Origin: Bacteroidales bacterium
Lineage (GTDB): Bacteria > Bacteroidota > Bacteroidia > Bacteroidales > WCHB1-69
Assembly (NCBI GenBank): GCA_017454945.1
Contig: JAFTCA010000013.1
Coordinates: 60,505-124,504, forward strand
Reading direction: 5' to 3'
DNA: 64,000 bases
Of the stretch, positions 2,436-63,225 are shown in pieces. The notes under the pieces are model-generated. The model was given only the letters and a program-made list of their open reading frames with translations. It was not told the origin of the DNA and did not search any database. The translations under genes were made by a program, and so were the position numbers. Each line of letters starts with the position of its first letter. Within the stretch, counting starts at the first letter, position 1.

Positions 2436-2487
2436 AAGTTAAGAAGTTAAGAAGTTAAGAAACTAAGTGTTATTAAGTTAGCAAGTC
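2436..2487. repeat. Degenerate 8-nt tandem word array (AAGTTAAG x3, AAACTAAG, ...)
   Basis: Read directly. Begins 1 nt after the symporter stop codon. Confidence 0.9.
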
Positions 2488-2500
2488 ACAAAATCATATC

Positions 2501-2535
2501 AATTGTAAATTGTAAATTGTAAATTATAAATTGAA
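2501..2535. repeat. 7-nt tandem word array (AATTGTA x4-5)
   Basis: Read directly. Ends 3 nt before the ATG at 2539. Confidence 0.9.
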
Positions 2536-2538
2536 AAT

Positions 2539-2922
2539 ATGAAATCGTTTTGTAAAATGTTGATAGTGACTGCTTTGTTGGGCGTGGTTGCGGCTTGTCA
2601 TCGCGATGAGCCTGCGAGCGTGGTCAAGTCGTTTTATTATGCTTATCAAAATTTGGATTTTGAGAAGGCCCGCGAGTATTGTACGCCTTATATGTCGCAA
2701 AAAATCAGTCTGATAGAAGAAGGCTTCAACGAAGAAAAGCAGGCGTTTTTGCATCCTAAAATCAAGAAACAGCATATCTCTGTAGGTGATGTCTCCTACA
2801 ACGATGCCGGCAATCAGGCTGTGGTCACGGTCGTTTTCACCGCTCCAGAGGATACGGTTCAGCACATCGATTATGTTACCTTGGAAAAGTGTGGCGAGGA
2901 GTGGCAAGTCTCTAATTTCTAG
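2539..2922 (+). CDS. Small lipoprotein, function unknown (DUF4878-like)
   Basis: Signal peptide plus lipobox (LLGVVAAC). About 127 aa, with a compact alpha/beta-looking body. Confidence 0.45.
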   Translation: MKSFCKMLIVTALLGVVAACHRDEPASVVKSFYYAYQNLDFEKAREYCTPYMSQKISLIEEGFNEEKQAFLHPKIKKQHISVGDVSYNDAGNQAVVTVVFTAPEDTVQHIDYVTLEKCGEEWQVSNF

Positions 2923-3045
2923 TCTGCTTCCTCAATTTTTCAAAAATATTCATTTGGATACCGCGTGCTGTCATTTTTTTATTATTTTTGCAGCAATTTT
3001 CAATATTTGGAGTTGAATAAATCTATTAATTTAAAGCATAATTTT

Positions 3046-6000
3046 ATGAAAAGAATTTTTACTACGTTGTTAGCTTGCAGTTTGCTGTTTATCACTGCAT
3101 TAAGCTATGCACAGGTAGAAGCTCCGGTGTTCTCGCCCGCTTCAGGCACCTTGTTGTACGAACCTACAGAAGTGGCGATAACATGCGCTACTCCCGGTGC
3201 TGTAATCCGTTACACTACAGATGGAAAGAATCCCGTTGACACTTCGGCGATTTGCACAGGAACCGTTCTGGTGAACAAGGCGATGACCATTAAGGCCAAA
3301 GCATGGTTAAACGATTCCACTTACAGTGCAGTGGCCTCTGCTTCATACACTTTCCCTACGGAATATGGTACAATAAAAGCTTTCAAAGCTGCCAATAAGA
3401 CCCTCAACAAAGTTGTTTACAAGGTTGCAGCCGATGTGACGGTTACTTTCGTCAATAATCATTATCTCTTCGTTCAAGATACCACGGCTGCTCTGATGGT
3501 GTATGACCGCGATGGTGTTTTGACGCACACATACAAGAATGGTGATGTGATTAAGGGCGGTATTTGCGGTATGGCCAACAAATACAACACCATGAACGAG
3601 TTCATCCCCACTCACGATTTTGCTGCTCCCGTGGCTGGTGCTGCTGTTGAGCCCGTGGTGATGGATCCCGCAGAGTTGAACACCAATTTCAGTTCTTACG
3701 AAGCAGCCTTAGTTACTTTGCAAGATGTTAAGTTCGAAAATCATGACGCTTTCGGTAAGGGTTCAACGCTGGGCAAAAAGACCATGTCGGCCAATGCTAA
3801 ATTGTTCTATTGCTACAATGAGTTCGGTACCATCGAAGGTGTTATTCCTCCTTCAGCTCCTACCAATGTGACGGGTATCGCCATCGTTTTCAATTCTGAA
3901 AAACGTATTGCTCCTCGTGATGCTAACGATGTAGTAGTGAACGAAAATACCACTATCCCTTATGTTTCGATTGTAGCTCCTGAAGCCGACGCCGTTATCA
4001 CTGGTGTTGTTAAATTGGATGTGGCTGTGAAGAATTTCGAAGTTGCAGAAGGTAAGGGCGGTGTGAAAGTTCAAATGGACAATGCAAACACCACTTGGTT
4101 CGATTTGGACACCTTGAAAGCTCACGAATTTGAACTCGCTTCGGGTAGCCATACTGTTACCGTAACACTGGTTGACACCAATGCCGCTGCTGTTGCCAAT
4201 GCTTTTTCAGAATCCCGTACTTTTGAAGTTGACCTGATCAACGCACCGGCTCCCACATTTAGCGTGGAATCGGGTGTTGTTTATGATGAGCAATTGACGG
4301 TTAACATCACTTGCACTGATGCCAACGCTACCATATATTATACCACCGATGGTACTACTCCTACAGCCTCTTCAACTGCTTACGATGCAGAAACCGGTGT
4401 GGTTCTTACTAAGACCGCTACTTTGAAGGCTGTGGCTATGGTAGAAGATATGGACGCCAGCGAGGTTACAGAAGCTCGCTATGCATTCCCCACAGTAACC
4501 GTGGTTGCTCCGACCGACGGTGCTGTGATTACCGATAAAGTGACCGTTGACGTTACGGTTAAAGACTATCTGCTTGGCAACACCGCTGATGGTATCCTTA
4601 CCGTTTCTGTCGAAGGTGACAAAACAAGTAAATTCATCCAGATTAAGTCGAACGACGAGCTGAATGTGCTGAAATATCAACCTATTGACCTTCCTTCTGG
4701 CATGTATAATCTTGAGGTGAAACTCCAAGCTAACAATGTGGTAGGTGAAACGACAACCAAGAGCGTTGAACTGGCTTTTGAAGTAAAGAAAGCTACCACC
4801 GAAGCTCCTGTATTTTCACCTAAGGGTGGTCTCTTTAACAAGGATGTTGAAGTTGAACTGACTTGCGCCACCGCAGGTGCCAAGATATTCTATTCGAAGA
4901 ATGGCGGTGAAATAAGCGAATATTCAGATCCTATCACCATTACTACCGCAGAGATGCCTGTTACGATGACTGCTTATGCTACTTCCGACGATCTTGAACA
5001 GAGCGAAGAGGTTGAGGCTGTTTACGAATATACCGACCAACCCGCTATCTATGTTAGCGAATCAGTTATTTCGTTGAAAGCCCGTAACGACAAGCAAACT
5101 ATCTATGTTTCTGGCGTTAACTTGGGTGAAAACATTAGAATCACTTCCAACAAGGCTAACTTCAGAGCCAGCGTCACCACGATGAACTACAATGTTACCG
5201 ATGCTCCTCTGACCATCACCTACGTTGGTACCAAGAACGATACCGCTCTTATTACGCTGACCAGTATCAACCACTACGACACTGTGAAGACTGTTGTTAA
5301 GGCTATCGCTGACCTGTTCGTAGCAACTCCTTCGTTTACACCTGCTCATCAAGCTACTTCATACATTGAACCTATCGATGTGACTATCTTGTGTGGCACC
5401 GAAGGCGCTACCATCCGTTACACTTTGGACGGTACGGATCCTGATGAAAATTCAACAGTTTTCAGCACACCTATCAACATCACCACCACGACCACTATCA
5501 AGGCCAAAGCTTGGAAAGGTACTCAATCTCCCAGCGAGGTGGCTGTAGCTACATACTTGTTCCCCTCAATTGACATGCTTGTTCCTGCTGAAGGCGAAGT
5601 ATTCGTTAATGCATTCAAATTGGATCTCAAGGTTAATTATTTCCCCATCGCAGAATCTGCAGATGGTCTGCTGAAGGTTGAAATTCCTGGTCAGGAACCT
5701 ACTTATTGGACTTCAGATACCTTGAGAAAACTGTTGGCTATGTCGATCGACCTGCCCGCTGGTGATTATGCAATTACCATGTCACTGGTACGTGATGACA
5801 AATCGCCCATTAACGAACCTGTAAGCGTTACCCACAACTTCACCGTTAAGGTGGCTGCTCCTGAGTTCTTGCCCGAACCTGGTAAGTTCTACTCATCAAA
5901 GAATGTACAACTGACGAGCGAAACCAAAGGTGCTCAAATCTATTACACCACCGACGGTTCTGTTCCTACCGCTGCATCAACTCTCTATATCAACCCGTTC

Positions 6001-6348
6001 GTAATCACCAATACCACCACCGTTAAGGCTATCGCCGTTAAGAATGCCGATACCAGTGATGTGGCCGTTGGCGAGTACATCTACGCAGTTGGTATCAACG
6101 AAGTTGAAGATCTGGCTAACATTGCTGTTTACCCGAATCCTACGGTTTCTGTAGTGAATGTGGCTACCGGCAATCTGAAGACCACCCAATATGACATTAT
6201 TGGTATGAACGGTCAGCTTATCTTCACCGAGACCAGCGTTAAGAATGGCGACTTCCAAGTGTCAATGGAAAATTATCCTTCAGGTGTTTACTTCCTGAGA
6301 ATCTTCACCGACAAGGGTATTGCCGTTAAGAAAATCTCAAAGATGTAA
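3046..6348 (+). CDS. Large secreted multidomain protein with five chitobiase/hexosaminidase-C-like (FN3-associated) modules and a T9SS type-A C-terminal sorting domain
   Basis: Signal peptide MKRIFTTLLACSLLFITALSYAQ. Five copies of the motif (A/G)x(V/I)xYT(T/L)DG(x)xP. C-terminus VYPNP...GVYFLRIFTDKGIAVKKISKM is typical of Por_Secre_tail. A rho-independent terminator follows. Confidence 0.8.
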   Translation: MKRIFTTLLACSLLFITALSYAQVEAPVFSPASGTLLYEPTEVAITCATPGAVIRYTTDGKNPVDTSAICTGTVLVNKAMTIKAKAWLNDSTYSAVASASYTFPTEYGTIKAFKAANKTLNKVVYKVAADVTVTFVNNHYLFVQDTTAALMVYDRDGVLTHTYKNGDVIKGGICGMANKYNTMNEFIPTHDFAAPVAGAAVEPVVMDPAELNTNFSSYEAALVTLQDVKFENHDAFGKGSTLGKKTMSANAKLFYCYNEFGTIEGVIPPSAPTNVTGIAIVFNSEKRIAPRDANDVVVNENTTIPYVSIVAPEADAVITGVVKLDVAVKNFEVAEGKGGVKVQMDNANTTWFDLDTLKAHEFELASGSHTVTVTLVDTNAAAVANAFSESRTFEVDLINAPAPTFSVESGVVYDEQLTVNITCTDANATIYYTTDGTTPTASSTAYDAETGVVLTKTATLKAVAMVEDMDASEVTEARYAFPTVTVVAPTDGAVITDKVTVDVTVKDYLLGNTADGILTVSVEGDKTSKFIQIKSNDELNVLKYQPIDLPSGMYNLEVKLQANNVVGETTTKSVELAFEVKKATTEAPVFSPKGGLFNKDVEVELTCATAGAKIFYSKNGGEISEYSDPITITTAEMPVTMTAYATSDDLEQSEEVEAVYEYTDQPAIYVSESVISLKARNDKQTIYVSGVNLGENIRITSNKANFRASVTTMNYNVTDAPLTITYVGTKNDTALITLTSINHYDTVKTVVKAIADLFVATPSFTPAHQATSYIEPIDVTILCGTEGATIRYTLDGTDPDENSTVFSTPINITTTTTIKAKAWKGTQSPSEVAVATYLFPSIDMLVPAEGEVFVNAFKLDLKVNYFPIAESADGLLKVEIPGQEPTYWTSDTLRKLLAMSIDLPAGDYAITMSLVRDDKSPINEPVSVTHNFTVKVAAPEFLPEPGKFYSSKNVQLTSETKGAQIYYTTDGSVPTAASTLYINPFVITNTTTVKAIAVKNADTSDVAVGEYIYAVGINEVEDLANIAVYPNPTVSVVNVATGNLKTTQYDIIGMNGQLIFTETSVKNGDFQVSMENYPSGVYFLRIFTDKGIAVKKISKM

Positions 6349-6365
6349 TCTTTAATCTATATGAT

Positions 6366-6399: not shown

Positions 6400-6423
6400 T
6401 GTCCGTAGCCGACAATTATTTCG

Positions 6424-11863: not shown

Positions 11864-13087
11864 ATGTATATACCATTCTCACCGCCTCGCATTGATGACC
11901 GCACCATAGAAGAGGTGACTGCGGCGCTCAGGTCGGGGTGGATAACTACGGGGCCACGTACCAAAAAACTGGAAAAAATGATTGCCGACTATTGCCATGT
12001 GCCACAGGTACTCTGTGTCAGTTCGGCCTCAGCCGGCTTGGAGCTGATGCTGCACTGGTTCGGTGTAAAGGAAGGTGACGAGGTGATTGTGCCGGCTTAC
12101 ACTTATTGTGCAACGGCCAATGTGGTAGTGCATTGCGGTGCCACACCCGTGATGGTGGATGTGAACGACGACTTCCTGATTAATGTGGAGAATATCCGTA
12201 AGGCTATTACTCCGCGCACCAAGGTGGTGATACCCGTTGATATTGCAGGCTATCCGTGTGATTATGAGTTGATTAATGCGTTGGTTGCCGAGCCGGAAGT
12301 GCGAGCCCTGTTCCAGCCTCAAACGCCCGAACAGCATCAGTTGGGTCGCATTCTGGTGCTATCCGATGCAGCCCATTCCATTGGAGCTCAGTATCATGGC
12401 CGCAAGACGGGCAGCCTTACCGATGTGTCGGTGTTCTCGTTCCATGCGGTGAAGAACCTGACCACGGCCGAAGGTGGAGCCATCTGCCTCAATTTGCCTG
12501 CTCCTTTTGATTTGGAAGCGTTGTATAAATATTTATGTACAAAATCATTACACGGGCAGTCGAAGGATGCGTTGGCCAAAACTCAGATTGGCAACTGGCG
12601 CTACGATGTGCTCGAGGCGGGCTACAAGTGCAATATGACCGATGTGCTGGCAGCTATTGGCTTAGTGGAGATGGAACGTTATGAAGAGGATATGCTGCCA
12701 CGCCGTAAGGCTATCTTTAATGCTTATACTGAGGCGTTTAAGGATGATGAACGCTTTCAGGTTCCCGAATACGAGACGGCGCAAAGAGTCTCCTCGTACC
12801 ATGTTTATCCTTTGCGTATAAAAAATATTACAGAGGTGCAGCGCGATGCCATTATGCAAGCTATTTTTAAACGTGAAGTGTCTGTAAATGTGCATTTTAT
12901 TCCTCTGCCTATGCTGACTTGCTACAAGAATATGGGCTATAAGATAGAGGATTATCCCGTGGCGTACGACAACTACTCGCGCGAGATCAGTTTGCCCGTA
13001 TATTACAATCTCACCGACGAGCAAGTGGCGTTTGTGATAGATGCGGTTAAAGCGGCAGTGGAGGTAGAAGTGAAAACTGAAAATTGA
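11864..13087 (+). CDS. DegT/DnrJ/EryC1/StrS-family PLP-dependent sugar aminotransferase
   Basis: Family-typical N-terminus and the PLP-lysine context FSFHAVKNLTTAEGGAI. The stop codon lies inside a GAAAACTGAAAATT tandem array. Confidence 0.85.
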   Translation: MYIPFSPPRIDDRTIEEVTAALRSGWITTGPRTKKLEKMIADYCHVPQVLCVSSASAGLELMLHWFGVKEGDEVIVPAYTYCATANVVVHCGATPVMVDVNDDFLINVENIRKAITPRTKVVIPVDIAGYPCDYELINALVAEPEVRALFQPQTPEQHQLGRILVLSDAAHSIGAQYHGRKTGSLTDVSVFSFHAVKNLTTAEGGAICLNLPAPFDLEALYKYLCTKSLHGQSKDALAKTQIGNWRYDVLEAGYKCNMTDVLAAIGLVEMERYEEDMLPRRKAIFNAYTEAFKDDERFQVPEYETAQRVSSYHVYPLRIKNITEVQRDAIMQAIFKREVSVNVHFIPLPMLTCYKNMGYKIEDYPVAYDNYSREISLPVYYNLTDEQVAFVIDAVKAAVEVEVKTEN

Positions 13088-13100
13088 AAACTGAAAATTG
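13072..13100. repeat. Tandem array, 2 x GAAAACTGAAAATT
   Basis: Read directly. Contains the aminotransferase stop codon (13085-13087). Confidence 0.9.
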
Positions 13101-13186
13101 TAGAGGCCAAAATGTTTTTCCTCTGCGCGAGGAGTTAAGACGAACTCTTAACTTTTTAATCTTTCCGTTGAGAAGGGAATTATCCT

Positions 13187-16412: not shown

Positions 16413-17258
16413 ATGAAATCATTCAAACTTATACTGGTCGTTGCGGCCCTAACGTTGACGGCCGTTTCTTGCGGTCAGAAGAAAGAAACCCCTAAGGCAG
16501 AAGCCCCAAAAATGTTGGTTGTCTATTATTCTCAAACCTCCCATACCAAAGCTGTTGCTGAGGAGATTGCCAAACGCTTGAGCGCTGATATTGAGGAGAT
16601 TATTGCTGTGCAACCCTATGATGGCGATTTCCAGGCTACCGTTGAGCGTGGCAAGCAGGAGAGGGCAGAGGGCATTTTGCCTGACATTCAGCCTCTGACC
16701 AAGGATATAACTCAATATGATGTCATTTTCATCGGATTCCCGGTGTGGTTTGGCACGTATGCTCCGCCAGTGGCTACGTTTTTGGACCAAGTGGATTTAA
16801 GTGGCAAGAAGATTGTGCCTTTCTGCACGTTTGGTAGTGGTGGCTTGGAATCCAGTGTGAAGGATTTGGTTGTGGCAGAGCCCAATGCGGAGATACTGCC
16901 CGGCTATGGCGTTCGTGCTGCGCGTATGGAGGCTATGCCCAATGAGGTGGACCAATTTCTGAAAGCCAATGGTTTCCTTGAAGGCGACTTTGTGAAGTTG
17001 GAGGAATTTCCAGAGCAACATCCTGTAAATGAGGAAGAAGCCGCAGTGTTTAATGCGGCTGTGGATGGCTATCCGATGATCCATGCCGAAGCTAAAACGG
17101 TGGCCACTCGTGCCATTCCCGACGGTACGGAATATCTGTTCACTGCTGTCGATCTTTCTCGTGAGTGCAGACCGGATATGCCGCCGGCAGGAGAGATGAA
17201 GGTGTATGTTACCGTTACGAATGGTGCGGCTCCCGTATTTACAAAAGTTATACGATAG
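16413..17258 (+). CDS. Flavodoxin-domain lipoprotein with extra C-terminal domain
   Basis: Lipobox LTAVSC. Flavodoxin-like core (MLVVYYSQTSHTK...VIFIGFPVWFGTYAPP). ATG at 16413 (the track start at 16407 is TTG). Confidence 0.65.
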   Translation: MKSFKLILVVAALTLTAVSCGQKKETPKAEAPKMLVVYYSQTSHTKAVAEEIAKRLSADIEEIIAVQPYDGDFQATVERGKQERAEGILPDIQPLTKDITQYDVIFIGFPVWFGTYAPPVATFLDQVDLSGKKIVPFCTFGSGGLESSVKDLVVAEPNAEILPGYGVRAARMEAMPNEVDQFLKANGFLEGDFVKLEEFPEQHPVNEEEAAVFNAAVDGYPMIHAEAKTVATRAIPDGTEYLFTAVDLSRECRPDMPPAGEMKVYVTVTNGAAPVFTKVIR

Positions 17259-31140: not shown

Positions 31141-31168
31141 TTTTAGTTGTTAGTTTTTAGTTGTTAGA
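31141..31168. repeat. TTAGTTG-word array; left inverted arm of four-helix-bundle cassette 1
   Basis: 31143-31167 is the exact reverse complement of 31530-31554 (checked base by base). Confidence 0.95.
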
Positions 31169-31178
31169 AAAAGTTTTT

Positions 31179-31547
31179 ATGATGAAATCAAGTGATTATA
31201 AACAATTGAAAGTGTGGCAGAAAGCAATTGATTTGACGGTGGAGGTGTATAAGATTGTCAAGTATCTGCCAAAAGAAGAAACGTATGTGTTGTCAGATCA
31301 GATGCGAAGAGCGGTGGTTTCAATACCCTCCAATATCGCAGAAGGTCAGGGGCGAAATTCACGCAAGGAATTTCAGAATTTTTTATCTATAGCACGAGGG
31401 TCTTTGTGGGAGTTGGGAACTCAAATCGAAATTTGTGAACGCTTGGGCTACTTAAATAATCCTCAAACGACTAAAGTCCATGAACTAACCATGGAGATTG
31501 GAAAAATGCTCAATGCCCTCTCAAATTCTCTAACAACTAAAAACTAA
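31179..31547 (+). CDS. Four-helix-bundle protein (23S rRNA intervening-sequence protein / Avd family), copy 1
   Basis: Family signature YKQLKVWQKA...LPKEE...L.DQMRRA.VSIPSNIAEGQGR...EF..FL.IARGS..EL.TQ. Bracketed by inverted arms at 31143-31168 and 31529-31554. Confidence 0.8.
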   Translation: MMKSSDYKQLKVWQKAIDLTVEVYKIVKYLPKEETYVLSDQMRRAVVSIPSNIAEGQGRNSRKEFQNFLSIARGSLWELGTQIEICERLGYLNNPQTTKVHELTMEIGKMLNALSNSLTTKN

Positions 31548-31560
31548 CAACTAACAACTA
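31529..31560. repeat. CTAACAA-word array; right inverted arm of cassette 1
   Basis: Exact complement of the left arm over 25-26 nt. Overlaps the last codons and the stop of the ORF. Confidence 0.95.
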
Positions 31561-31567
31561 ATATTGC

Positions 31568-31575
31568 TATTTTTG
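31568..31575 (+). promoter_or_regulatory. Bacteroidota -7 promoter box
   Basis: TATTTTTG, 27 nt upstream of the ATG at 31602. Confidence 0.45.
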
Positions 31576-31601: not shown

Positions 31602-32171
31602 ATGTCTTATTTCGTTCACGAATCGTCGTATGTAGATGAGGATTGCCTTATTGGTGAAGGCACCAAGATTTGGCATTTCTCGCATATCATGTCACATTGC
31701 CGTATTGGCAAAAACTGCAATATTGGTCAGAATGTGGTCATCTCACCCGAAGTGGTGCTTGGCAATAACGTGAAGATACAGAACAATGTATCTGTCTATA
31801 CGGGTGTTACTTGCGATGACGATGTTTTCCTTGGCCCCTCTATGGTATTCACCAATGTGATTAATCCGCGCAGTGCCGTCTGCCGCAAAGACCAGTACGC
31901 ACGCACGCATGTGGGCAAGGGGGCTTCCATTGGAGCCAATGCCACTGTGGTCTGCGGACACAATATCGGACGCTACGCTTTCATTGGAGCCGGTGCCGTT
32001 GTGACCAAAGATGTGCCCGATTACGCCCTGATGGTGGGAAATCCCGCCGTCCAGGTCGGCTGGATGAGCGAGTACGGCTGCAAACTTGCTTTCAACGAGA
32101 ACGGCGAGGCCGTTTGTCCTGAAAGCGGCGAAAAGTACCGACTGACAGAAGGGAAGGTTGTTAGACTTTAG
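31602..32171 (+). CDS. Left-handed beta-helix (hexapeptide-repeat) sugar N-acetyltransferase, WbpD/FdtC-like
   Basis: Hexapeptide repeats throughout ([26 protein letters not shown], ...), 189 aa. TATTTTTG box at 31568. Confidence 0.8.
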
Positions 32172-32195
32172 GCATTAGACTTTAGACGTTAGACG
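32161..32195. repeat. TTAGACT-word array; left inverted arm of cassette 2
   Basis: About 31 of 35 positions are complementary to the 32560-32597 array (longest perfect run 13 nt). Overlaps the acetyltransferase stop. Confidence 0.85.
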
Positions 32196-32208
32196 GTAAT
32201 GTGAAAAT

Positions 32209-32577
32209 ATGAAATCAAGTGATTATAAACAGTTAAAAGTATGGCAGAAGGCGATGGATTTGACTGTAGAAGTTTATGATCTTATCAAGAAATTGCCGAA
32301 AGAAGAAAATTATGGATTGTCCGACCAGATGCGCAGATCGGTTGTTTCTATTCCTTCTAATATTGCGGAAGGACAAGGAAGAAATTCGGATAGAGAATTT
32401 GTGAATTTTTTATCTATAGCAAGAGGTTCTCTTTGGGAATTGGAAACCCAACTGGAGATATGTAAAAGACTAGGATATATTGACAACAATCAAATGTCGA
32501 ATGCTTTTGTTTTAACAACAGAAATTAGCAAAATGATTAATTCATTATCAAAAACCCTGCTAAAGTCTAAAGTCTAA
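32209..32577 (+). CDS. Four-helix-bundle protein (23S rRNA IVS protein / Avd family), copy 2
   Basis: About 70% identical to copy 1 by eye and carries the same signature. The C-terminal residues LLKSKV are encoded by the CTAAAGT array. Confidence 0.8.
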   Translation: MKSSDYKQLKVWQKAMDLTVEVYDLIKKLPKEENYGLSDQMRRSVVSIPSNIAEGQGRNSDREFVNFLSIARGSLWELETQLEICKRLGYIDNNQMSNAFVLTTEISKMINSLSKTLLKSKV

Positions 32578-32597
32578 AGTCTAAAGTCTAAAGTCTA
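32560..32597. repeat. CTAAAGT x5 tandem array; right inverted arm of cassette 2
   Basis: Read directly. Overlaps the 3' ends of both the four-helix-bundle ORF (+) and the rhomboid gene (-). Confidence 0.95.
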
Positions 32598-33253
32598 TCT
32601 ATATCCTCTAAGCCTTCTACATCCTCTAAATCCTCTTCTTCCCAAACATATTCTTTCTTTTGTGGGCCTTCATTCCTATAGAAAAAGGCAAGTATCACTC
32701 CTGTGATAGCGCCTGCCAGATGGCCTTCCCAAGAAATGAACTTGTCGGGGAAGAGCGATGGAAAGAATCCCCATACAATACTCCCGTATAAAAATATGAT
32801 AATCAATGTGTAAGCCATGAGGTGCTCTTCCATTTTCAAAATGGAGATAGTGACCAGGAAGAAAGCCTGTGCGTACACCATGCCGCTGGCACCGATATGT
32901 ACGCCTGACGAGGCTATCACCCATGTGAGGATGCCCGATATCAGGTAGTGCATAAGGAGTATGAGAAACGCTTTGTTGCGGAAGAAATAGAAAAGACCGA
33001 ATAGCAGGAAGAATAGCGGTAGGCTGTTGGAAAACAGGTGCTCGTAGTCGGCATGCAGGAAGGGCAGGGTGAATATGCCTACGAGGCCCGATAATTCGCG
33101 CGGACGCACTCCAAAGTCGTTCCAATTAAGCATGAACACATGGTTGAGAATAAAAGCCAGCCAGATTAATCCGATAATTATAAGTGACTGAGCAATAGCT
33201 AAATAAAACCTATGTTTTTCAAACAGACGCTCTTCCATGGACGTGGGTATCAA
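32588..33253 (-). CDS. Rhomboid-family intramembrane serine protease
   Basis: GASGMVYA (GxSG) in TM4 and HLAGAITG (His) in TM6. Confidence 0.75.
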   Translation of the reverse strand: MIPTSMEERLFEKHRFYLAIAQSLIIIGLIWLAFILNHVFMLNWNDFGVRPRELSGLVGIFTLPFLHADYEHLFSNSLPLFFLLFGLFYFFRNKAFLILLMHYLISGILTWVIASSGVHIGASGMVYAQAFFLVTISILKMEEHLMAYTLIIIFLYGSIVWGFFPSLFPDKFISWEGHLAGAITGVILAFFYRNEGPQKKEYVWEEEDLEDVEGLEDIDRL

Positions 33254-34244: not shown

Positions 34245-34261
34245 GGCTAAATGATGATAGT

Positions 34262-34388
34262 GGTTAAGAAGTTCAGAAACTAAGGGGTTAAGAGGGTGTG
34301 AAGGATTAAATGAATAGTGAACAGTGAAGGAACTAAGTAGCAATGTATTTGTTCTTTGTTCTTGAATTTGAATTTTGAATTCTGAATT
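34262..34388. repeat. Composite word array (GTTAAGAA / AACTAAG / AGTGAAnn / TTGTTCT / TTGAATT)
   Basis: Fills almost the whole spacer between the permease stop and the CDF start. Confidence 0.85.
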
Positions 34389-35621
34389 TTATTCTTCCTT
34401 TTTTCCATTATACTCAAAACCAATCTCTTCCACGGCTTTTTTTACGGCTTCGTCGTCAGGGGTGCCAGTGACGATGGCGAGATTGTGTCCAAGATCCACT
34501 TCCACTTTAGTTACACCATCCAGTTGGCTGATGGCTTTTTCGACCGACATTTTGCAGTGGTTGCAGCTCATGCCGCCGATTTGATAGATAATTTGGTCTT
34601 TGTTCATAGTTGTTTTGTTTTTTTTGTATTTTAAAATGAAAGCATTTGCTAAGAGGAGTACAAAGATACCACAAAAAATCATTTGTGAGACGGAGGGCCA
34701 CTGTGTGGTGTGGCAGCAGGCGTGATCAATGAAAGCGGGCATAAACCAGGATGCGGGCAGCAGATAGTCGACCACGATGCCGCCTGCGAGCGCACCGATG
34801 ATAATAGAAGCCATGTAGCATATCAGATTCTTGCGTCCCAGTGTTTTGCCGATTATCAGTATGTTGGCGATGCTGGCAGCCGGTCCGGCAACCAGAAATA
34901 CCAAGGCTGTGCCGGGAGTTAACCCCTTAAGTATCAGAGCTGCCGCAATAGGAATTGACCCCATGGTGCACACATACATAGGTATGGCAATGACCAACAC
35001 CAGCATCATCATGACAATAGGAGGCAGGTTCAGTGAGGCAAAGAAGTTGTCAGGCACGAAAACGGTAATCAGCGCACCTAATGCCAAACCGATAATAAGC
35101 CACTTGCCGATGTTTTGGAACATCTCAATAAAGCTGTAATATAGTAAATCCTTGATTTTCTGTCCGAAAGATCTCTTTTCAACATGCTTGGATGTGTTGT
35201 TATGCACCACAATCTCATCTTTCGAGAATTGTGCTGTAACGCAGCCGCCCGCCAATCCTGTAATGAGCGCTACCACGGGACGCAGAATAGCGAAGGGTAG
35301 GCCCAACATGGAGTAAGTGGCAATAATGGAATCGACACCCGTTTGCGGGGTGGCAATCATAAAGGCAACCGTGGCACCTCGCGAAGCGCCGTCTCTGCGC
35401 AGAGAGACCGCCGTGGGAATAACACCGCACGAACATAGTGGTAGGGGAATGCCTAACAGCGTGGCCCATAGCACCGATTTGAAGTTTTCCTGACCGAGAT
35501 ATTTCTCAAAAACACCTTGAGGCACAAAAACATGCAAGATGCCAGCAATGAGAAAGCCTATCATCAGATAGGGGGCCATTTCGCATAACATGCTGAAAAA
35601 TGAGAAGAGGATGGAGGACAT
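34389..35621 (-). CDS. Permease (DUF318/ArsP-like; SO_0444-type Cu/Zn efflux family) fused to a C-terminal heavy-metal-associated domain
   Basis: Polytopic permease with LPLCSCGVIP, plus a C-terminal HMA fold carrying GMSCNHC. Confidence 0.7.
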   Translation of the reverse strand: MSSILFSFFSMLCEMAPYLMIGFLIAGILHVFVPQGVFEKYLGQENFKSVLWATLLGIPLPLCSCGVIPTAVSLRRDGASRGATVAFMIATPQTGVDSIIATYSMLGLPFAILRPVVALITGLAGGCVTAQFSKDEIVVHNNTSKHVEKRSFGQKIKDLLYYSFIEMFQNIGKWLIIGLALGALITVFVPDNFFASLNLPPIVMMMLVLVIAIPMYVCTMGSIPIAAALILKGLTPGTALVFLVAGPAASIANILIIGKTLGRKNLICYMASIIIGALAGGIVVDYLLPASWFMPAFIDHACCHTTQWPSVSQMIFCGIFVLLLANAFILKYKKNKTTMNKDQIIYQIGGMSCNHCKMSVEKAISQLDGVTKVEVDLGHNLAIVTGTPDDEAVKKAVEEIGFEYNGKKEE

Positions 35622-35630
35622 GACGGTGAA

Positions 35631-35750
35631 TCGTTTAATTGTTGAAGTGTTGAAGTGTTGAAGTGAATAGTGAGAAGTGAGGAGTGAATAGTGAGCAGTG
35701 AGATGAAAGTTAAGAAGTTAAGGAACTAAGAAGTTAAGTGTTGTTGAGTT
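35631..35750. repeat. Composite word array (TTGAAGTG x3, AGTGAnn xN, GTTAAGAA/AACTAAG xN, GTTGTTGA)
   Basis: Read directly. Same word order as the array at 58587-58675. Confidence 0.9.
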
Positions 35751-35759
35751 GTTTGTGTC

Positions 35760-35805
35760 ATTCCGAGACGGTGGTTGAGCCTATCGAAAATGCCGTCGAA
35801 GGAAT
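35760..35805. repeat. Imperfect hairpin element embedded between word arrays
   Basis: ATTCCgaGACGG - 21 nt - CCGTCgaaGGAAT. Confidence 0.6.
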
Positions 35806-35807
35806 CT

Positions 35808-35926
35808 CTTTGAATTTTGAATTTTTATATTTGTTCTTTGTTCTCTGGATTTTGTTCTTTATTATGCATCGTGCATTGTGAATTATGAATTTGTTCTCTG
35901 TTCTTTGTCCTTTGAATTTTGAATTT
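35808..35926. repeat. Composite word array (TTGAATTT / TTGTTCT / TGTGAATT), bounded by 17-nt direct repeats CTTTGAATTTTGAATTT
   Basis: Read directly. Ends at the stop codon of the Cys-rich small ORF. Confidence 0.85.
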
Positions 35927-36076
35927 CTATTTATCATTACTGCAGGCATCTTTAAATTGACAACCTTCGCAGCCGCAACTGCACTTGCCTGATTTCCGTT
36001 GTTTGTAGCGGGCGTAAATGGCGGCGGCAACGGCTGCCAAAATGACGATGAGGATAATGATGCTTGCAGCGTTCAT
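35927..36076 (-). CDS. FeoB-associated Cys-rich small membrane protein
   Basis: Not in the ORF track (49 aa): MNAASIIILIVILAAVAAAIYARYKQRKSGKCSCGCEGCQFKDACSNDK. One TM helix plus a Cys cluster. Starts 20 nt after the feoB stop. Confidence 0.6.
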   Translation of the reverse strand: MNAASIIILIVILAAVAAAIYARYKQRKSGKCSCGCEGCQFKDACSNDK

Positions 36077-38466: not shown

Positions 38467-38537
38467 TTTAGTTGTTAGTCTTTAGTTTTTAGTTGTTAGA
38501 TAATCTATCTAATTATAAATTATTAATTGTACATTGT
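38467..38537. repeat. TTAGTTG-word array followed by TAATTGT/ATAAATT words
   Basis: Same word family and orientation as 31141-31168. Lies between the porin stop and the feoAB start. Confidence 0.85.
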
Positions 38538-49040: not shown

Positions 49041-49074
49041 CATTGTTAATTATAAATTGTTAATTGTCAATTAT
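49041..49074. repeat. TAATTGT / ATAAATTG word array
   Basis: Intercistronic, between the DUF1599-like and DoxX-fusion genes. Confidence 0.8.
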
Positions 49075-52351: not shown

Positions 52352-52590
52352 TTTGTTGATATGTGGTTAATAACTTAAATCGTGATGTGCCTAGGAAAGA
52401 CATTGCAAAATTAATAATAATATCTCTCGGAGAATTAAATATTCGTCGTCCAGTCTAATTCTTACCAAGAATAATTCTCAATTTTTAATGTTTGAGATAT
52501 AGGGTATGCAAGCAGTTAAATGTTGTTACAAATGTAATTTTACAATTATAACAAATTAAATAGGTATGATACTTTTGTAAAAGATAATAG

Positions 52591-52635
52591 GTACAATTGT
52601 AAAATATTTGATTTGATGAAGCAAGTACAATTGTA
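52591..52635. promoter_or_regulatory. Two copies of the palindrome GTACAATTGTA, 34 bp apart, in a ~650-bp AT-rich non-coding region
   Basis: Exact copies at 52591-52601 and 52625-52635. Degenerate copies at 52525-52537 and 52540-52551. Confidence 0.4.
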
Positions 52636-53004
52636 TGACAATTCTTCAAAAACATTTGAATCGTTGGTATGATTTCAACAAATGTTTCAATTCAGTAATT
52701 ATGTATGAAAAATGTTTATTTCAAAATCATAACTAATTCATTTCTATAATATTTATGTCTATAGATTAAAGTTGTAGATAAAATAAATATATGATGTTAT
52801 TAACAGTATTTGTAAATTATAATTCTCAACTCGTATTCATTATTAAATCAAATACTTACATATTCGATTTAAAGTAAAAGACTAAGTAGTTTTCAACAAT
52901 TTTCAAAATAGCTATTTTTATTTGTTAAATTTGCAGTTGTAAATACCGATGTGTTTATATTTGTAATTGATAGGTAATAAATCTATTTTCACTTTGTAAA
53001 AATT

Positions 53005-58544: not shown

Positions 58545-58586
58545 AAGCTTAGCGTTTTAGGTTAATTATTGTGTTTATTTGTTGAA

Positions 58587-58710
58587 TCGTTTAAATGTTG
58601 AAGTGAGAAGTGAGTGGTGAGTAGTGAATTGAGTTAAGAAACTAAGGAGTTAAGAGTTATAGAGTTGTTGAAATGGGTCCTTTTAATTGTAAATTATTAA
58701 TTGTCAATTA
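58587..58710. repeat. Composite word array homologous to 35631-35750, followed by AATTGTA-type words
   Basis: Shares TCGTTTAA(A/T)TGTTGAAGTG, AGAAGTGAG, GTTAAGAA, AACTAAG(G/A)AGTTAAG and GTTGTTGA in the same order. Confidence 0.85.
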
Positions 58711-59886
58711 TCTATTTAGCTTATTGTACGTTCTCCACCACCTGTCAGGAATTTTGTCTGTGCAGGCGGTCTCGTAATCTTTACGAGAGCAGGGGAGAAG
58801 ATATTGTTGTTCAGTGTCTTTCTTCAGGTTAATAACGGGCACTACCATCCACCAACGTTCTGTTTTTTTGCTACGGTAGAATACCAATTCGCTCGTGGCC
58901 TCGCTGACCGACACACTGTATTTGAAGTAATTATCTTTCTGTTTGAAGTTAAGGTCGTCTTGGCGATGGCTGTATCCCTCAACAAAGTACCACAAGATAT
59001 GGCTTATCAACTGAGAGGTTTGGTTGTTGTAATCCATCGTAGGGTCGTACTCGTAAATGCCGAAGGAGGAGAGCTTGTCATTCAAGCCGGCATAACTCGA
59101 CACCTGACAGATTTCCTCGCCGTAAAAACCGTTGGATGAGGCGTTTGGGTTGCCTGGCGCATCCACACGACGAACGGCGGAGATATCCAACGCCAGCAGA
59201 TCGGCATTGCGCACAATCGGCTCTACATCTTCCATATCCTTGCGCAGCATGCCCACACGGTAAGTCTCGAAATAGAGTTGCTGCATTAAATCGATATCTT
59301 CAGGACTGTTAAGATAAGTCTGATAACCCACATTAGCAAAATTGAGCAAGCAGTTGGGCTGCTGCATGATAATCTTGTTCAGATAGCCGTCCGAAGTGAT
59401 GGTATTCTCGTCGTCGCCCAGGTCAAAGCGCGAATCCACAACCACCATATTGACAATTTTGTTCAGTTTGGCGTAGGCCAAATAATTGGCGTAAGCCAAA
59501 TCGTTGGTGCCACCCAGAATAATTGGAATAACCTTATTTTCAATTAAATGGGCGATAATACTTGCCACAACCTCGTAGGTATCCTCAATTTCCTTGCCAG
59601 GAATCAGATTGCCCAAATCAAGAATTCTGACGGGCTTTTTCCAACTGAAAAGACGGTAAAATTGCCGGCGAATCTCATCGGGAGCCAGCGCTGCAGATGG
59701 GTTGTTGCGACTGTTTCGCGACTCGGGAACACCCATAATGGCCATGTCGAACCCCGACAATGAAGGCTCTTCATCCTCCGCTGTCTGGAATAAAACAGTG
59801 TTGATCAGGTAAGCCGGATTCTGATAGTTGTCGTTAAAACCTAACGAATCAAAATCAACAGGAGTGAAGTAGGGCTTTAGTTCCAT
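58708..59886 (-). CDS. Arginase/formimidoylglutamase-fold protein with divergent metal-ligand motifs and an extra C-terminal domain
   Basis: Ureohydrolase-fold motif order is conserved (ILGGTNDLAYA; VVVDSRFDLG; LLALDISAVRRVDAPG) but canonical GGDHS / DAHxD / DxDxxDP ligands are substituted. Confidence 0.65.
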   Translation of the reverse strand: MELKPYFTPVDFDSLGFNDNYQNPAYLINTVLFQTAEDEEPSLSGFDMAIMGVPESRNSRNNPSAALAPDEIRRQFYRLFSWKKPVRILDLGNLIPGKEIEDTYEVVASIIAHLIENKVIPIILGGTNDLAYANYLAYAKLNKIVNMVVVDSRFDLGDDENTITSDGYLNKIIMQQPNCLLNFANVGYQTYLNSPEDIDLMQQLYFETYRVGMLRKDMEDVEPIVRNADLLALDISAVRRVDAPGNPNASSNGFYGEEICQVSSYAGLNDKLSSFGIYEYDPTMDYNNQTSQLISHILWYFVEGYSHRQDDLNFKQKDNYFKYSVSVSEATSELVFYRSKKTERWWMVVPVINLKKDTEQQYLLPCSRKDYETACTDKIPDRWWRTYNKLNR

Positions 59887-59933
59887 CGCAAGGTGCTTTG
59901 TCTGTGTATGATGAGTCGGATTACAATTTTATG

Positions 59934-59941
59934 CAAAGGTA
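59934..59941 (-). promoter_or_regulatory. Bacteroidota -7 promoter box
   Basis: TACCTTTG on the minus strand, 48 nt upstream of the start at 59886. Confidence 0.45.
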
Positions 59942-59984
59942 ACACTTTTATCATTATAAATATTTATGCTAAACAAAAAATAAT

Positions 59985-59992
59985 TATTTTTG
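59985..59992 (+). promoter_or_regulatory. Bacteroidota -7 promoter box
   Basis: TATTTTTG, 22 nt upstream of the ATG at 60014. Confidence 0.5.
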
Positions 59993-60013
59993 CTTTTTAA
60001 AATCCAACATTAC

Positions 60014-61042: not shown

Positions 61043-61050
61043 CTCATACA

Positions 61051-61788: not shown

Positions 61789-61824
61789 TAATTCACAATT
61801 CACAATTCATAATGCACAATTAAG
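61789..61824. repeat. AATTCACA-word array
   Basis: Starts 1 nt after the GT2 stop. Reverse complement of the TGTGAATT words at about 35870. Confidence 0.85.
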
Positions 61825-61998
61825 TATAGAGGCGGAAGGCTGATATTCAAATTGTTATATGTTGTTTAATATAATTCTATTTGACATAATATAAATTATA
61901 GGAAAAATATAGCAGGTTTATTTTCATTGCGAAAGTCTTCAATAAATGCTTTTTTTCGGCCTATTACCAACAATGATCTGTGCGTGCTTTTTTTATTG

Positions 61999-62205
61999 TT
62001 AGTTTAGATGTGCCAGAAATAATTTTTTCCAGCTCGGTTCAGGAAGCTTTCTTTTTCTTCCTCCGCCCACAAAGTAAACAAGATTGCCCATAGCTGAAAG
62101 TATTCTAATCCCATTTCCCTTTGCTAATGCCAGTGCAAATAAAAACATAAATAAATCGCCTGTTAAATAGCCGTCTAAATGTCCGCGTTTGATTTTATTT
62201 GACAT
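61999..62205 (-). CDS. Possible small membrane protein (68 aa)
   Basis: Isolated ORF in an AT-rich spacer with one hydrophobic segment. No clear promoter box or homology recognised. Confidence 0.2.
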   Translation of the reverse strand: MSNKIKRGHLDGYLTGDLFMFLFALALAKGNGIRILSAMGNLVYFVGGGRKRKLPEPSWKKLFLAHLN

Positions 62206-62297
62206 AATAATTTGATTTTACAGATGATTAAATCCTTTTTGATGCAAATTTTGTATATTTTTGTATGATGATAAACGATATAATCTTTTCTATTAGT

Positions 62298-62948
62298 ATG
62301 CGGCACAAAAAGCGTCTTTTTTTAATCACAACTTACTCGTTATTAACGTTTTTTTTCTGTAACACCACTACCCTTTCTGCGCAGAATTTTTATGATAAAT
62401 ATAATGTAAGCTGGTGGCAATGGGGCTTCAAAATCGGTGCCAATTTCACAGGCAAGCATGTCATTGCACAGGAAGACTTGTCTGCCGGACTATATGAATA
62501 TAAGCTAAACGGCCTGTTTTGCGGCGAATTTAGCGCCTATTTCCGTGCTGGCAAATATGTGTTCGGTGAAATCGGGTTTGGCTACCAGTTCCAGAAAACA
62601 CGCTTCAAAACGACCATGCCGGTTTCTGAAGAAACGATGCCCGTGGAATTGCGATATCTGCAAATTCCTATCAGAGCGGTAGCTTATCTGCCCGTAAGTG
62701 AGCTGGTTACACTAATGCCCAGCGTTGGCATTATCTACCAACCGCTTATTCAAGTGACTGAAAATCAGATTGCTCTTTCCAAAGATAATATCCGCCGCCA
62801 CGCATGCTATTGGTCGGCCGGTGCTGGCATCAAAATCCACTTTATCACCATCGATTTGGCCTATCGCAAGTCGTTTTTGTCCTATTTTAGCGACCGTAAA
62901 TCCACCAAAGAAGGCTATTTCAATGTGCAGATTGGTGTTCAAATGTAA
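62298..62948 (+). CDS. Small outer-membrane beta-barrel (OMP_b-brl_2 / PorT-like size class)
   Basis: Signal peptide MRHKKRLFLITTYSLLTFFFCNTTTLSAQ, about 8 amphipathic strands. Start at 62298 is 40 nt after the promoter-like box. Confidence 0.5.
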   Translation: MRHKKRLFLITTYSLLTFFFCNTTTLSAQNFYDKYNVSWWQWGFKIGANFTGKHVIAQEDLSAGLYEYKLNGLFCGEFSAYFRAGKYVFGEIGFGYQFQKTRFKTTMPVSEETMPVELRYLQIPIRAVAYLPVSELVTLMPSVGIIYQPLIQVTENQIALSKDNIRRHACYWSAGAGIKIHFITIDLAYRKSFLSYFSDRKSTKEGYFNVQIGVQM

Positions 62949-63030
62949 TTTTTTAATATTGATATTCAGATATTTGCATAAAAAATCTGAAAAATTGGCG
63001 CCGTGCTGTTGAAAGAAACGAAAAAAGATG

Positions 63031-63038
63031 TATTTTTG
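63031..63038 (+). promoter_or_regulatory. Bacteroidota -7 promoter box for tRNA-Val
   Basis: TATTTTTG, 19 nt upstream of tRNA position 1. Confidence 0.5.
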
Positions 63039-63056
63039 CCGCGTCTAAACGACAAA

Positions 63057-63131
63057 GGGAGCTTAGCTCAGTTGGTTTAGAGCATCTGCCTTACAAGCAG
63101 AGGGTCATAGGTTCGACTCCTATAGCTCCCA
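63057..63131 (+). tRNA. tRNA-Val (anticodon TAC)
   Basis: Manual cloverleaf: acceptor GGGAGCT/AGCTCCC, D-arm GCTC..GAGC, anticodon stem TCTGC/GCAGA with loop CTTACAA, T-arm ATAGG-TTCGACT-CCTAT. No encoded CCA. Promoter box at 63031 and a terminator downstream. Confidence 0.9.
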
Positions 63132-63132
63132 C

Positions 63133-63169
63133 AAAAAAAGACTCATCATTTTGATGAGTCTTTTTTTTG
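63133..63169 (+). terminator. Rho-independent terminator after tRNA-Val
   Basis: GACTCATC-atttt-GATGAGTC stem followed by T8. Confidence 0.8.
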
Positions 63170-63194
63170 TTTTAGCCCCCCCTACCTGTTTTTA

Positions 63195-63225
63195 GAAATT
63201 CAGAATTCAAAGTTCAAAATTCAAA
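63195..63225. repeat. (A/G)AATTCA-word array
   Basis: Reverse-complement orientation of the TTGAATT words. Abuts the 15-bp hairpin at 63225. Confidence 0.8.

Follow-up and report, generated by a model that had tools for sequence, protein, structure and literature searches.

The window analysed here, a 64,000-nt stretch of an uncultured rumen Bacteroidales genome, carries tandem arrays of degenerate 7- and 8-nt words in many of the spacers between its genes. Four of these arrays form the inverted arms of two small cassettes (31141-31561 and 32161-32597), each built around a four-helix-bundle gene of the PF05635/TIGR02436 family, and the same architecture recurs beside homologous genes in many phyla. 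We hold with moderate confidence that the arrays are the arms, together with orphan and chimeric arms, of selfish inverted-repeat elements that resemble the intervening sequences (IVSs) of rRNA, travel with or without a four-helix-bundle cargo gene, and do not act as translation leaders. Rather than host translation signals, the arrays would most likely be neutral or parasitic filler.

Two four-helix-bundle cassettes and the array vocabulary of the window

The gene map used comprised 55 open reading frames (ORFs) and a small FeoB-associated gene on the minus strand (35927-36076). Coding bases number 58202 in the window and non-coding bases 5798. Type IX secretion system (T9SS) sorting tails and Bacteroidetes-type TAnnTTTG boxes are present on window genes. 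A scan of the window at Rfam gathering thresholds found a single tRNA, no rRNA, and no other known RNA family. Arrays were called with Tandem Repeats Finder (TRF), and the cassettes consist of the following parts:

31141-31167: 5' arm of cassette 1, 3.6 copies of TTAGTTG (TRF, fold)
31179-31547, plus strand: four-helix-bundle gene 1 (23S_rRNA_IVP / TIGR02436; PF05635 E=3.3e-42, TIGR02436 136.7 bits)
31530-31561: 3' arm of cassette 1, 4.6 copies of CTAACAA, overlapping the last codons and stop of gene 1 (TRF, sequence, fold)
32161-32194: 5' arm of cassette 2, 4.9 copies of TTAGACT, holding the stop codon of the hexapeptide acetyltransferase gene (TRF, sequence, fold)
32209-32577, plus strand: four-helix-bundle gene 2 (PF05635 E=4.3e-44; 74% identical to gene 1)
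32560-32597: 3' arm of cassette 2, 5.4 copies of CTAAAGT with 100% matches, in which both gene 2 and the convergent rhomboid gene have their stops (TRF, fold)

The arm units are reverse-complementary, TTAGTTG with CTAACAA in cassette 1 and TTAGACT with CTAAAGT in cassette 2. When folded as RNA, cassette 1 is closed by a 26-bp arm-arm stem in both the minimum-free-energy and the centroid structure (z=-2.4), its arms being Watson-Crick paired at 25/25 positions, and cassette 2 is closed in both structures by an arm-arm stem of ~31 bp (z=-5.6). An earlier note on this DNA, made from the letters alone, had offered footprints or arms of four-helix-bundle cassettes as one possible role of the arrays, and for these four arrays that idea is supported. 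The neighbours of the cassettes are genes for an M50B peptidase, a hexapeptide transferase, and a rhomboid protein.

Relatives were compared by FeoB identity (L001, 94%; L003, 81%; others, 72-81%), together with the further assemblies L207, L208, and L209. The 5' arm of cassette 2 has an orthologous arm in L001, L207, and L208, and its CTAAAGT 3' arm counts 3.3 copies in L001 vs 5.4 in the window. Cassette 1 occurs in the window only among the relatives compared. At its site, the junction between the M50B peptidase and acetyltransferase genes, four relatives (87-99% identical) keep a hairpin element, TTGTTCT/TTTGAAT arrays, and a promoter box, and the TTAGTTG arms of the window are unrelated to these arrays. 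The acetyltransferase gene ends in gttagaatctaa in L209 (1503-1535), which has no cassette 2, and in gttagactttag, already arm sequence, in the window (32151-32171). The resemblance hints that microhomology with the 3' end of the host gene may have served the insertion of cassette 2 or the seeding of its array; since synteny downstream differs too, L209 does not qualify as a clean empty site.

Some further features of these sites were observed. In the four relatives, the TTTGAAT arrays place a TTTG every 7 nt directly upstream of the acetyltransferase gene's TAtTTTTG -7 box (L207, 2951-2999; L209, 904-953; L001, reverse complement of 16585-16640), and these stepped motifs could double as the Bacteroidetes -33 TTTG element. 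A TAtaTTTG box also lies within the window arrays at 35809-35926 (position 35826), antisense to the feo operon. Next to cassette 2, a period-9 repeat (32598-32636, TCTAATCC-like, 4.4 copies) is in frame within the minus-strand rhomboid gene, at its 3' end, where it gives an acidic repeat tail, and its copy number differs among the window, L001, and L207.

The period-7/8 signal extends well beyond the cassettes. TRF returned 54 rows for the window, and those in spacers nearly all had a period of 7 or 8 or a multiple (14/16/21). Such arrays were found at 13 of the 14 spacers listed in the earlier note; the fourteenth, 49041-49074, fell under the TRF threshold, yet has a lag-7 self-identity of 0.74. 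At each of the 14, the observed lag-7/8 self-identity exceeded that of all 1000 shuffles. Of the 5798 non-coding bases, 579 (10%) lie in period-7/8 arrays vs 176 of the 58202 coding bases (0.3%), the coding matches being mostly array edges that run over a stop codon, and non-coding DNA yields 20 period-7/8 rows vs a mean of 0.95 and a maximum of 3 in 100 dinucleotide-preserving shuffles. The dinucleotide shuffles and the 1000-shuffle lag test rule out chance or composition as the cause of the arrays. An artefact of composition or assembly, in which AT-rich spacers with degenerate words merely look periodic, has a practically negligible probability: these counts already refute its compositional half, and matching arrays are carried by four independent assemblies (L001, L207, L208, L209), so that they are not an assembly artefact.

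The words are shared between loci. AAGTTAAG, GAAGTGA, TTGAATT, TTTGTTC, TTAGTTG, and AATTGTA each occur at 2-4 loci in the window (TRF), and one block (AGTTAAG-AACTAAG-AGTTAAG-GTT-TT.AGTT) aligns in copies at 35618-35765, 58570-58690, 34255-34345, and 2425-2500, the first two of which also agree in the order TGTTGAAG, GAAGTGA, AAGTTAAG and in their non-repeat flanks. The stop codon of the upstream gene sits inside several arrays, and the arrays have rewritten the ends of ORFs, namely the last codons and stops of the symporter, DegT, acetyltransferase, rhomboid, and both cassette genes (2394-2435, 13071-13087, 31530-31547, 32161-32171, and 32560-32590). The M50B peptidase ORF of L001 no longer has its stop, and its reading frame runs through a hairpin element into an array. 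Stop codons in all frames were considered as a unifying property of the arrays and rejected: they are found in the sense direction of ~9/12 arrays, and the property fails for AAATTCA, GAACAAA, and GC-rich arms.

Much of the earlier description holds, then. The 14 spacers with tandem 7- or 8-mers are real, with a significant signal at all of them; the recurrence of words at unlinked loci is borne out by the four composites that align as copies of one block; the closeness of arrays to stop and start codons is correct on reading the sequence; and a simple compositional effect is excluded by the shuffles above. The statement that array spacers lack a TAnnTTTG box fails for three spacers (boxes at 31568, 13187, and 49072), and the statement that almost all arrays lie between same-strand genes has an exception in 32560-32597, which separates convergent genes. 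Nor is 63196-63225 an operon spacer, as a terminator scan places two terminator-like hairpins around its array.

Cassette architecture across genomes

Homologues of the cassette protein were collected from 80 loci, one genome per species scanned, in Bacteroidota, Acidobacteriota, Firmicutes, Kiritimatiellia, Planctomycetota, Chloroflexota, the candidate phyla radiation (CPR), Proteobacteria, Zixibacteria, and Myxococcota. Period-7 arrays stand on both sides of the PF05635 gene at 51 loci, on one side at 22, and on neither at 7, so that 73/80 carry arrays. Where both sides have them, the units are complementary with at most one mismatch in 42/51 cases. Up to 150 nt from the gene there are 5.0 arrays per kb vs 0.26 per kb elsewhere in those loci. 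The units vary by lineage (CAGGTGT, GTACCAA, TAGCGAG, AGGGTTC, and others) and the two arms change together, with 1286 of 1440 arm positions (89%) in Watson-Crick register over ~30 bp. What the units share is a core: AG is present in 47/48 left-arm units vs 20.2 expected (z=7.7) and CT in 45/48 right-arm units, the left-arm consensus being H-A-G-K-N-K-T. Many arms have ~4.4-4.7 units, i.e., five cores, within an overall range of array length from 2 to >19 units. "Empty" inverted array pairs without cargo also occur, and where a locus holds other arrays, these use its cassette-arm unit in 40% of cases vs 7% across loci (80 loci).

The cassettes sit between the stop codon of a host gene and the start of the next gene in housekeeping operons, including atpA/atpG, nuoD/nuoE, carA/carB, sucC/sucD, and the pyruvate dehydrogenase (PDH) E1 alpha/beta pair. 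A tblastn search against plasmids gave 32 records, mostly from heterocystous cyanobacteria, the classic carriers of short tandemly repeated repetitive (STRR) heptamers. In a Nostoc edaphicum plasmid, AGTAGGG/TCCCTAC arms enclose a cassette between ribonucleotide reductase genes; N. punctiforme has TCAGGAG/CTGACTC arms, Riemerella GGTTTAA/TAAACCT arms, and Gemmatirosa arms of 8-mers, and Trichormus is also among the plasmid carriers of cassette arms. Together with a cassette in L099 whose arms are AAGTTAAG and CTTAACTT, the 73 loci and these cyanobacterial, Riemerella, and Gemmatirosa plasmids bear out the cassette-arm idea beyond the window. A plasmid of Anabaena sp. 90 has the order cas6-cassette-cas4. 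23S_rRNA_IVP genes inside cas operons have been noted earlier (PMC3936711), and this arrangement therefore explains them.

Two observations concern the form of the arms. In the Anabaena sp. 90 plasmid pANA02 (L214, 235-510), the left arm of the cas6/cas4 cassette has expanded to ~273 nt, about 20 copies of a GGTGACA+GGGAACA 14-mer, and the right arm has 4.3 units; arms can therefore become very unequal. Heptamers of the GGGAATC, GGGATCA, and GGGTTCA type occur as arrays or arms in Planctomycetota, Deltaproteobacteria, and Acidobacteriota (L029, 204-244; L054; L063; L067).

A complete element would thus consist of a left arm of tandem AG-core units, a cargo, and a right arm of complementary CT-core units, the cargo being a PF05635 four-helix-bundle gene of ~120 aa or nothing. 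The window would hold two such complete elements, each sitting between the stop codon of a host gene and the gene that follows. The arms may pair, in the transcript or in single-stranded DNA, into a stem of ~25-35 bp, and RNase III would cut this stem if the analogy with the 23S rRNA IVS of Coxiella holds. Arms lengthen and shorten by replication slippage, as the comparison of close relatives shows, and the homologous composite blocks show that array blocks are copied from spacer to spacer. The ten spacers of the window with unpaired arrays would then hold orphan or chimeric arms, which may survive at harmless sites immediately behind a stop codon and ahead of a start codon. Each array has a strand that lacks G or C and so cannot fold, and many units carry stop codons.

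Unpaired arrays and the readings that compete for them

The arrays of the window outside the two cassettes are listed below.

2394-2424: 4.4 copies of GGAGAGA in the 3' tail of the symporter ORF, absent from the earlier list (TRF, sequence)
2430-2467: unpaired, 4 copies of the 8-mer AAGTTAAG, beginning at the symporter stop codon and part of the dispersed block (TRF, alignment)
2501-2538: unpaired, 5.4 copies of AATTGTA, ending at the ATG of a lipoprotein gene (2539) (TRF, sequence)
13071-13100: unpaired, 3.9 copies of TGAAAAC (CT-type unit AAACTGA), holding the DegT aminotransferase stop (TRF)
34262-34390: ArsP/CDF composite spacer, a degenerate AAGTTAAG/GAAGTGA block followed by 2.3 copies of TTTGTTC and 4.3 of TTGAATT (TRF, alignment)
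35631-35750: composite block of 3.2 copies of TGTTGAAG, 6.3 of GAAGTGA, and 4 of AAGTTAAG, homologous to 58587-58670 (TRF, alignment)
35757-35807: palindromic hairpin element (cattccgagacgg...ccgtcgaaggaatc) separating array blocks (sequence)
35809-35926: mirror-ordered TTTGAAT, TTTGTTC, a GTGAATT-like core, TTTGTTC, and TTTGAAT, directly after the stop of the FeoB-associated gene (TRF; lag-7 identity 0.69)
38467-38537: 4.7 copies of TTTAGTT/TTAGTCT and an AATTATA-type array in the OprB porin/FeoAB spacer, the first word belonging to the cassette-arm word family (TRF)
49041-49074: degenerate TTAATTG-type heptamers, with a TAttTTTG box next, at 49072 (lag-7 identity 0.74, motif scan)
58587-58711: composite block of TGTTGAAG, 4 copies of GAAGTGA, 3.8 of GAGTTAAG, and 2 of TTAATTGTAAATTA, holding the stop of an arginase-family gene (TRF, alignment, Pfam of neighbours)
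61790-61821: unpaired, 4.6 copies of AATTCAC, beginning directly after the stop of a glycosyltransferase gene (TRF, sequence)
63196-63225: unpaired, 4.3 copies of AAATTCA, with a tRNA terminator on one side and the terminator of a minus-strand gene on the other (TRF, terminator scan)

The AAACTGA unit of the array at 13071-13100 is the 3' arm of cassettes in L018 and L041. The 127-aa ORF that follows the AATTGTA array (2539-2922) was considered as a further cassette cargo. Pfam gave no match to it and NCBIfam only a weak lipoprotein-like one, its sequence reads like a lipoprotein signal peptide, and it is treated as a host gene.

These arrays turn over rapidly. In L001, the same operon carries arrays at the same spacers as in the window. 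The OprB-FeoAB spacer of L001 and L002 is identical to that of the window except for one extra 7-nt unit; the ArsP-CDF spacer is 28 nt longer in the window than in L001 through an indel of a unit block; the arrays at 35809-35926 have a shorter version in L001; and the spacer between the FeoB-associated gene and ArsP measures 305 nt in the window vs 55 nt in L001 and L002, where the block at 35631-35750 is absent. Both unit number and whole blocks thus change between relatives at 94-99%. At greater distance the arrays are gone: the orthologous spacers of L003 are 11-56 nt long and array-free, 53 kb of sequence from relatives with 72-81% FeoB identity held no true heptamer arrays, and in the distant relatives P0004, P0007, and P0012 synteny is lost and there are no arrays. 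Conservation of arrays at orthologous spacers, which the earlier note had proposed to look for, is accordingly absent in relatives at 72-81% FeoB identity.

This turnover bears on the proposal that the arrays are functional mRNA elements, either unstructured leaders or multivalent binding sites (e.g., for ribosomal protein S1 or cold-shock proteins), that aid Shine-Dalgarno (SD)-independent initiation or re-initiation in Bacteroidota. The sense strands of array spacers have very weak structure, with folds of -0.01 to -0.08 kcal/mol per nt vs -0.07 to -0.29 in the remaining same-strand spacers; a start codon follows many arrays at 0-18 nt; TAnnTTTG boxes are lacking in the minus-strand operon spacers; and MacGregor has made such a proposal for the TAACTGA repeats of Beggiatoaceae (PMC4679880). 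However, the folds equal those of dinucleotide shuffles (z -0.8 to +0.95), i.e., the weak folding comes from composition and not arrangement. It arises because one strand of each array lacks G or C and is not evidence of design, so that low structure as a designed property of leaders was rejected. In addition, one array sits between two terminators, block presence or absence differs between 94% relatives, and orthologous spacers at 81% FeoB identity do without arrays. The SD-independent leader role raised in the earlier note is therefore not supported, low structure being purely compositional and the arrays missing in relatives at 72-81%, and we regard the mRNA-element explanation as improbable.

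The distribution of a single word in metagenomes points the same way. An exact probe of 2.5 AAGTTAAG units matched at least 120 metagenome stretches, and all counts for this word refer to the matches listed. By context, 21 arrays are sense and 23 antisense to the neighbouring genes, 12 lie in convergent and 7 in divergent spacers, and 3 are inside ORFs; the mix would be about that of intergenic regions generally. It speaks against an mRNA function tied to one strand and against a restriction to operon spacers, and the idea that the arrays serve same-strand operon spacers or mRNA in particular is not borne out. Among 81 evaluable arrays, 14 are followed by a complementary array at 40-420 nt downstream, 1 has such a partner in the opposite polarity, and the other 66 stand unpaired. 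When read as AAGTTAAG, the unpaired arrays lie nearer the left-hand gene in 43 vs 15 of 58 cases (p=3e-4), whatever the gene orientation, and this bias is the position of a left arm. The composite spacers of the window likewise have AG-type words on the left and CT-type words on the right.

A different order of events has been considered, in which the arrays come first as ordinary long simple sequence repeats (SSRs), born from a polymerase-slippage bias for 7-nt units (Mrazek and colleagues), and the cassettes exploit or acquire them secondarily. According to literature reviewed in two papers, heptamers are the most over-represented long SSRs of many bacteria with no element attached (PMC4692102, PMC4679880). 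Unit-number differences between close relatives attest to active slippage, most AAGTTAAG arrays are unpaired and far from four-helix-bundle genes, and the native end of the L209 hexapeptide-transferase gene, with its resemblance to the window arm unit, could be a slippage seed. Nevertheless, array density is 20-fold higher beside PF05635 genes than elsewhere in the loci, and the AG core and AG-first polarity are conserved across phyla, a pattern not predicted by a slippage bias that is blind to sequence. That unlinked spacers carry identical composite blocks speaks for copying and not for independent birth, cassette 1 has TTAGTTG arms where the ancestral spacer arrays are TTTGAAT, and unpaired arrays keep their left-gene polarity. 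We therefore consider the arrays-first account unlikely. The earlier assertion that this is not ordinary slippage is right in that shared words have spread as homologous blocks and wrong in that slippage does operate on unit number.

Several points weigh against reading all arrays as arms of IVS-like elements. The arrays in 10 of the 14 listed spacers have no complementary partner, the left and right arrays of composite spacers are not complementary to each other, and AATTGTA, TTGAATT, and AATTCAC lack the AG/CT core. A four-helix-bundle gene lies within 200 nt of only 1/80 AAGTTAAG arrays, the one in the complete L099 cassette; unpaired arrays are therefore not simply mis-scored cassettes, an option that was rejected on this count. 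No intact cassette occurs at the unpaired-array spacers in any relative examined, so that descent from complete elements is inferred, not observed. TTTGAAT arrays at one spacer persist in relatives down to 87% identity, which could reflect function. Neither a transposase (among the genes scanned) nor a target-site duplication nor any other mechanism of mobility came to light. Finally, arm mismatches comprise 31 G-U vs 28 A-C; without a G-U excess there is no signal of RNA-level selection on the stem, and pairing may matter at the RNA or at the DNA level.

The missing RNA-type G-U signal would suit binding arrays in double-stranded DNA, with AG/CT cores 7 nt apart recognised by a chromosomal protein such as a nucleoid protein, a primase with its initiation trinucleotide (CTG/CTA), or the cassettes' own pentameric four-helix-bundle protein. 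Across phyla, the units keep their core and a fixed period of 7, their orientation is unbiased with respect to transcription, and ~4.4-4.7 units, or five cores, would match a homopentamer; a pentameric state of Xcc0516 is cited in PMC3936711. Against this, there is no direct evidence of binding, several window words have no core, array length ranges from 2 to >19 units, and the arms are complementary inverted arrays, for which pairing is the simplest explanation. DNA-binding arrays are thus very improbable in our view, and arms of IVS-like elements remain the reading we favour.

Hairpin elements of the cattccg...cggaatg type with a cttcgacaagctcag-like core adjoin arrays in the window (35757-35807), L001 (16640-16700), L207 (2885-2950), and L209 (830-895), and they vary between close relatives at one and the same spacer. 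These array-adjacent palindromic hairpins look like a second family of tiny dispersed elements. At 13122-13150, ggagttaagacgaactcttaacttttt is a short AT-rich hairpin made from the word AGTTAAGA and followed by a T run, and many metagenome AAGTTAAG arrays run on into a similar AAGTTAAGACG...CGTCTTAACTT hairpin; a terminator built from AGTTAAGA at ~13125-13150 was considered and was not called by the terminator scan. Elsewhere in the window, 52352-53004 is a 653-nt AT-rich (~37% GC) non-coding region that separates divergent genes and has several TAnnTTTG boxes and repeated gtacaattgta-type palindromes.

Known repeat systems and significance

IVSs of 23S rRNA insert in helix 9, 25 or 45. In Coxiella burnetii, the IVS lies in helix 45, measures 428 nt, contains an S23p ORF, and is closed by a 28-bp terminal inverted-repeat stem with 2-3 tandem GACAGAT heptamers, whose number varies among strains; RNase III cleaves the stem at the first repeat (PMC4990558). 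The window cassettes share with the IVSs of C. burnetii and Leptospira the PF05635/TIGR02436 ORF family, a size of ~420-440 nt, and a terminal stem (28 bp in Coxiella, ~26-31 bp here), and the Coxiella heptamer also carries an AG core. In contrast, the window elements lie between protein-coding genes and not in a 23S rRNA helix, their arms are longer, pure arrays, and many arrays in the window have neither partner nor ORF. The cassettes are IVS-like elements living in intercistronic DNA rather than in rRNA. By analogy with Coxiella, processing of their stems by RNase III may reasonably be expected.

The window arrays also have every defining feature of the intergenic heptameric long SSR or STRR-type class. 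Intergenic heptamer long SSRs (Mrazek) and the STRR of Calothrix are cited in PMC4692102, Xanthomonas GGGAATC arrays form 70-75 inverted pairs (PMC4692102), and TAACTGA arrays adjoin start codons in Beggiatoaceae, in Cyanobacteria, and in five Bacteroidetes, Paludibacter among them, and share their spacers with other heptamers (PMC4679880). Like STRR, Xanthomonas GGGAATC, Nostoc GGGGA(C/T)T, and TAACTGA repeats, the window arrays consist of tandem 7-nt units in intergenic DNA, often beside start or stop codons, with unit families common to many loci of a genome and lengths that vary between close relatives; the arrays of the known systems are described as transcribed and of unknown function. 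TAACTGA is of the reverse-complement type of the CAGTT-core cassette arms. Those studies concern one unit per genome, whereas the window has ~10 related words, including 8-mers, in composite trains, and they draw no link to four-helix-bundle cassettes or an AG-core rule. The G-quadruplex explanation given for GGGAATC is inapplicable to the AT-rich window units, and GGG-type arms elsewhere are of the type reported as putative G-quadruplexes in Xanthomonas.

MITEs (miniature transposable elements with inverted repeats) and REPINs, the paired forms of repetitive extragenic palindromic (REP) sequences, resemble the present elements in being short, dispersed, non-coding inverted-repeat units alongside a larger protein-carrying form, as the "empty" array pairs illustrate. 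They differ in that the arms here are tandem arrays and not unique terminal repeats, and in that the four-helix-bundle cargo has no known mobility function. No target-site duplication was seen at the ~250-nt block difference between the window and L001, and no REP-associated tyrosine transposase (RAYT) or other such transposase was found among the subset of window genes that was scanned, nor is a parent transposase known. REP sequences, bacterial interspersed mosaic elements (BIMEs), and REPINs are imperfect palindromes of 20-40 nt, usually in inverted pairs and associated with a RAYT, and CRISPR arrays have 24-48-nt repeats with unique spacers of similar length. The window units are non-palindromic 7-8-mers that directly abut, and belong to neither class, as the earlier note had rightly judged. 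The cassette proteins share the four-helix-bundle fold family with Avd of diversity-generating retroelements (DGRs), with weak matches to PF22296 bAvd and NF033474; the NF033474 scores of 40.3 and 36.8 bits lie far under the cut-off of 80 and no reverse transcriptase was called beside either cassette, so that these are not DGRs. In the literature searched, with incomplete coverage, no link between a four-helix-bundle gene and heptamers was found beyond Coxiella, and within that same coverage the general heptamer/PF05635 link, the AG-core rule, the residence in operon spacers, and the orphan-arm reading appear to be unreported.

Tandem heptamers in the intergenic DNA of bacteria have been on record since 1990 and still turn up in genome surveys, but to our knowledge no origin or function has been established for them. 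The present evidence links them to a definite element, a cassette in which array arms flank a four-helix-bundle gene. This cassette is at home in rRNA, where it is the classical IVS, and also, in many phyla, between genes within housekeeping operons. For annotation, arrays of this kind rewrite the 3' ends of host ORFs and confound gene calling and CRISPR or repeat finders, and the cassettes explain the "S23 ribosomal protein" genes inside cas, atp, nuo, and other operons. They also raise testable questions, namely whether RNase III acts on operon transcripts, what the widespread PF05635 protein does, and how such elements spread without a recognisable transposase.

A wider claim is put forward tentatively, as a possible but rather doubtful one. 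The intergenic heptamer excess may have been left by a single family of IVS-like selfish elements, ancient and pan-bacterial, with AG-core heptamer arms and the PF05635 protein as the usual cargo. This protein would recognise the arrays or the stem, the ~5 cores per arm would match a pentamer, and orphan arms would make up most arrays. If this is true, the excess, from STRR, GGGAATC, and TAACTGA to the Bacteroidales words, would not be a quirk of polymerase slippage. The element reading offers a testable origin for this long-standing heptamer puzzle and may explain why heptamers are so common in bacterial genomes.

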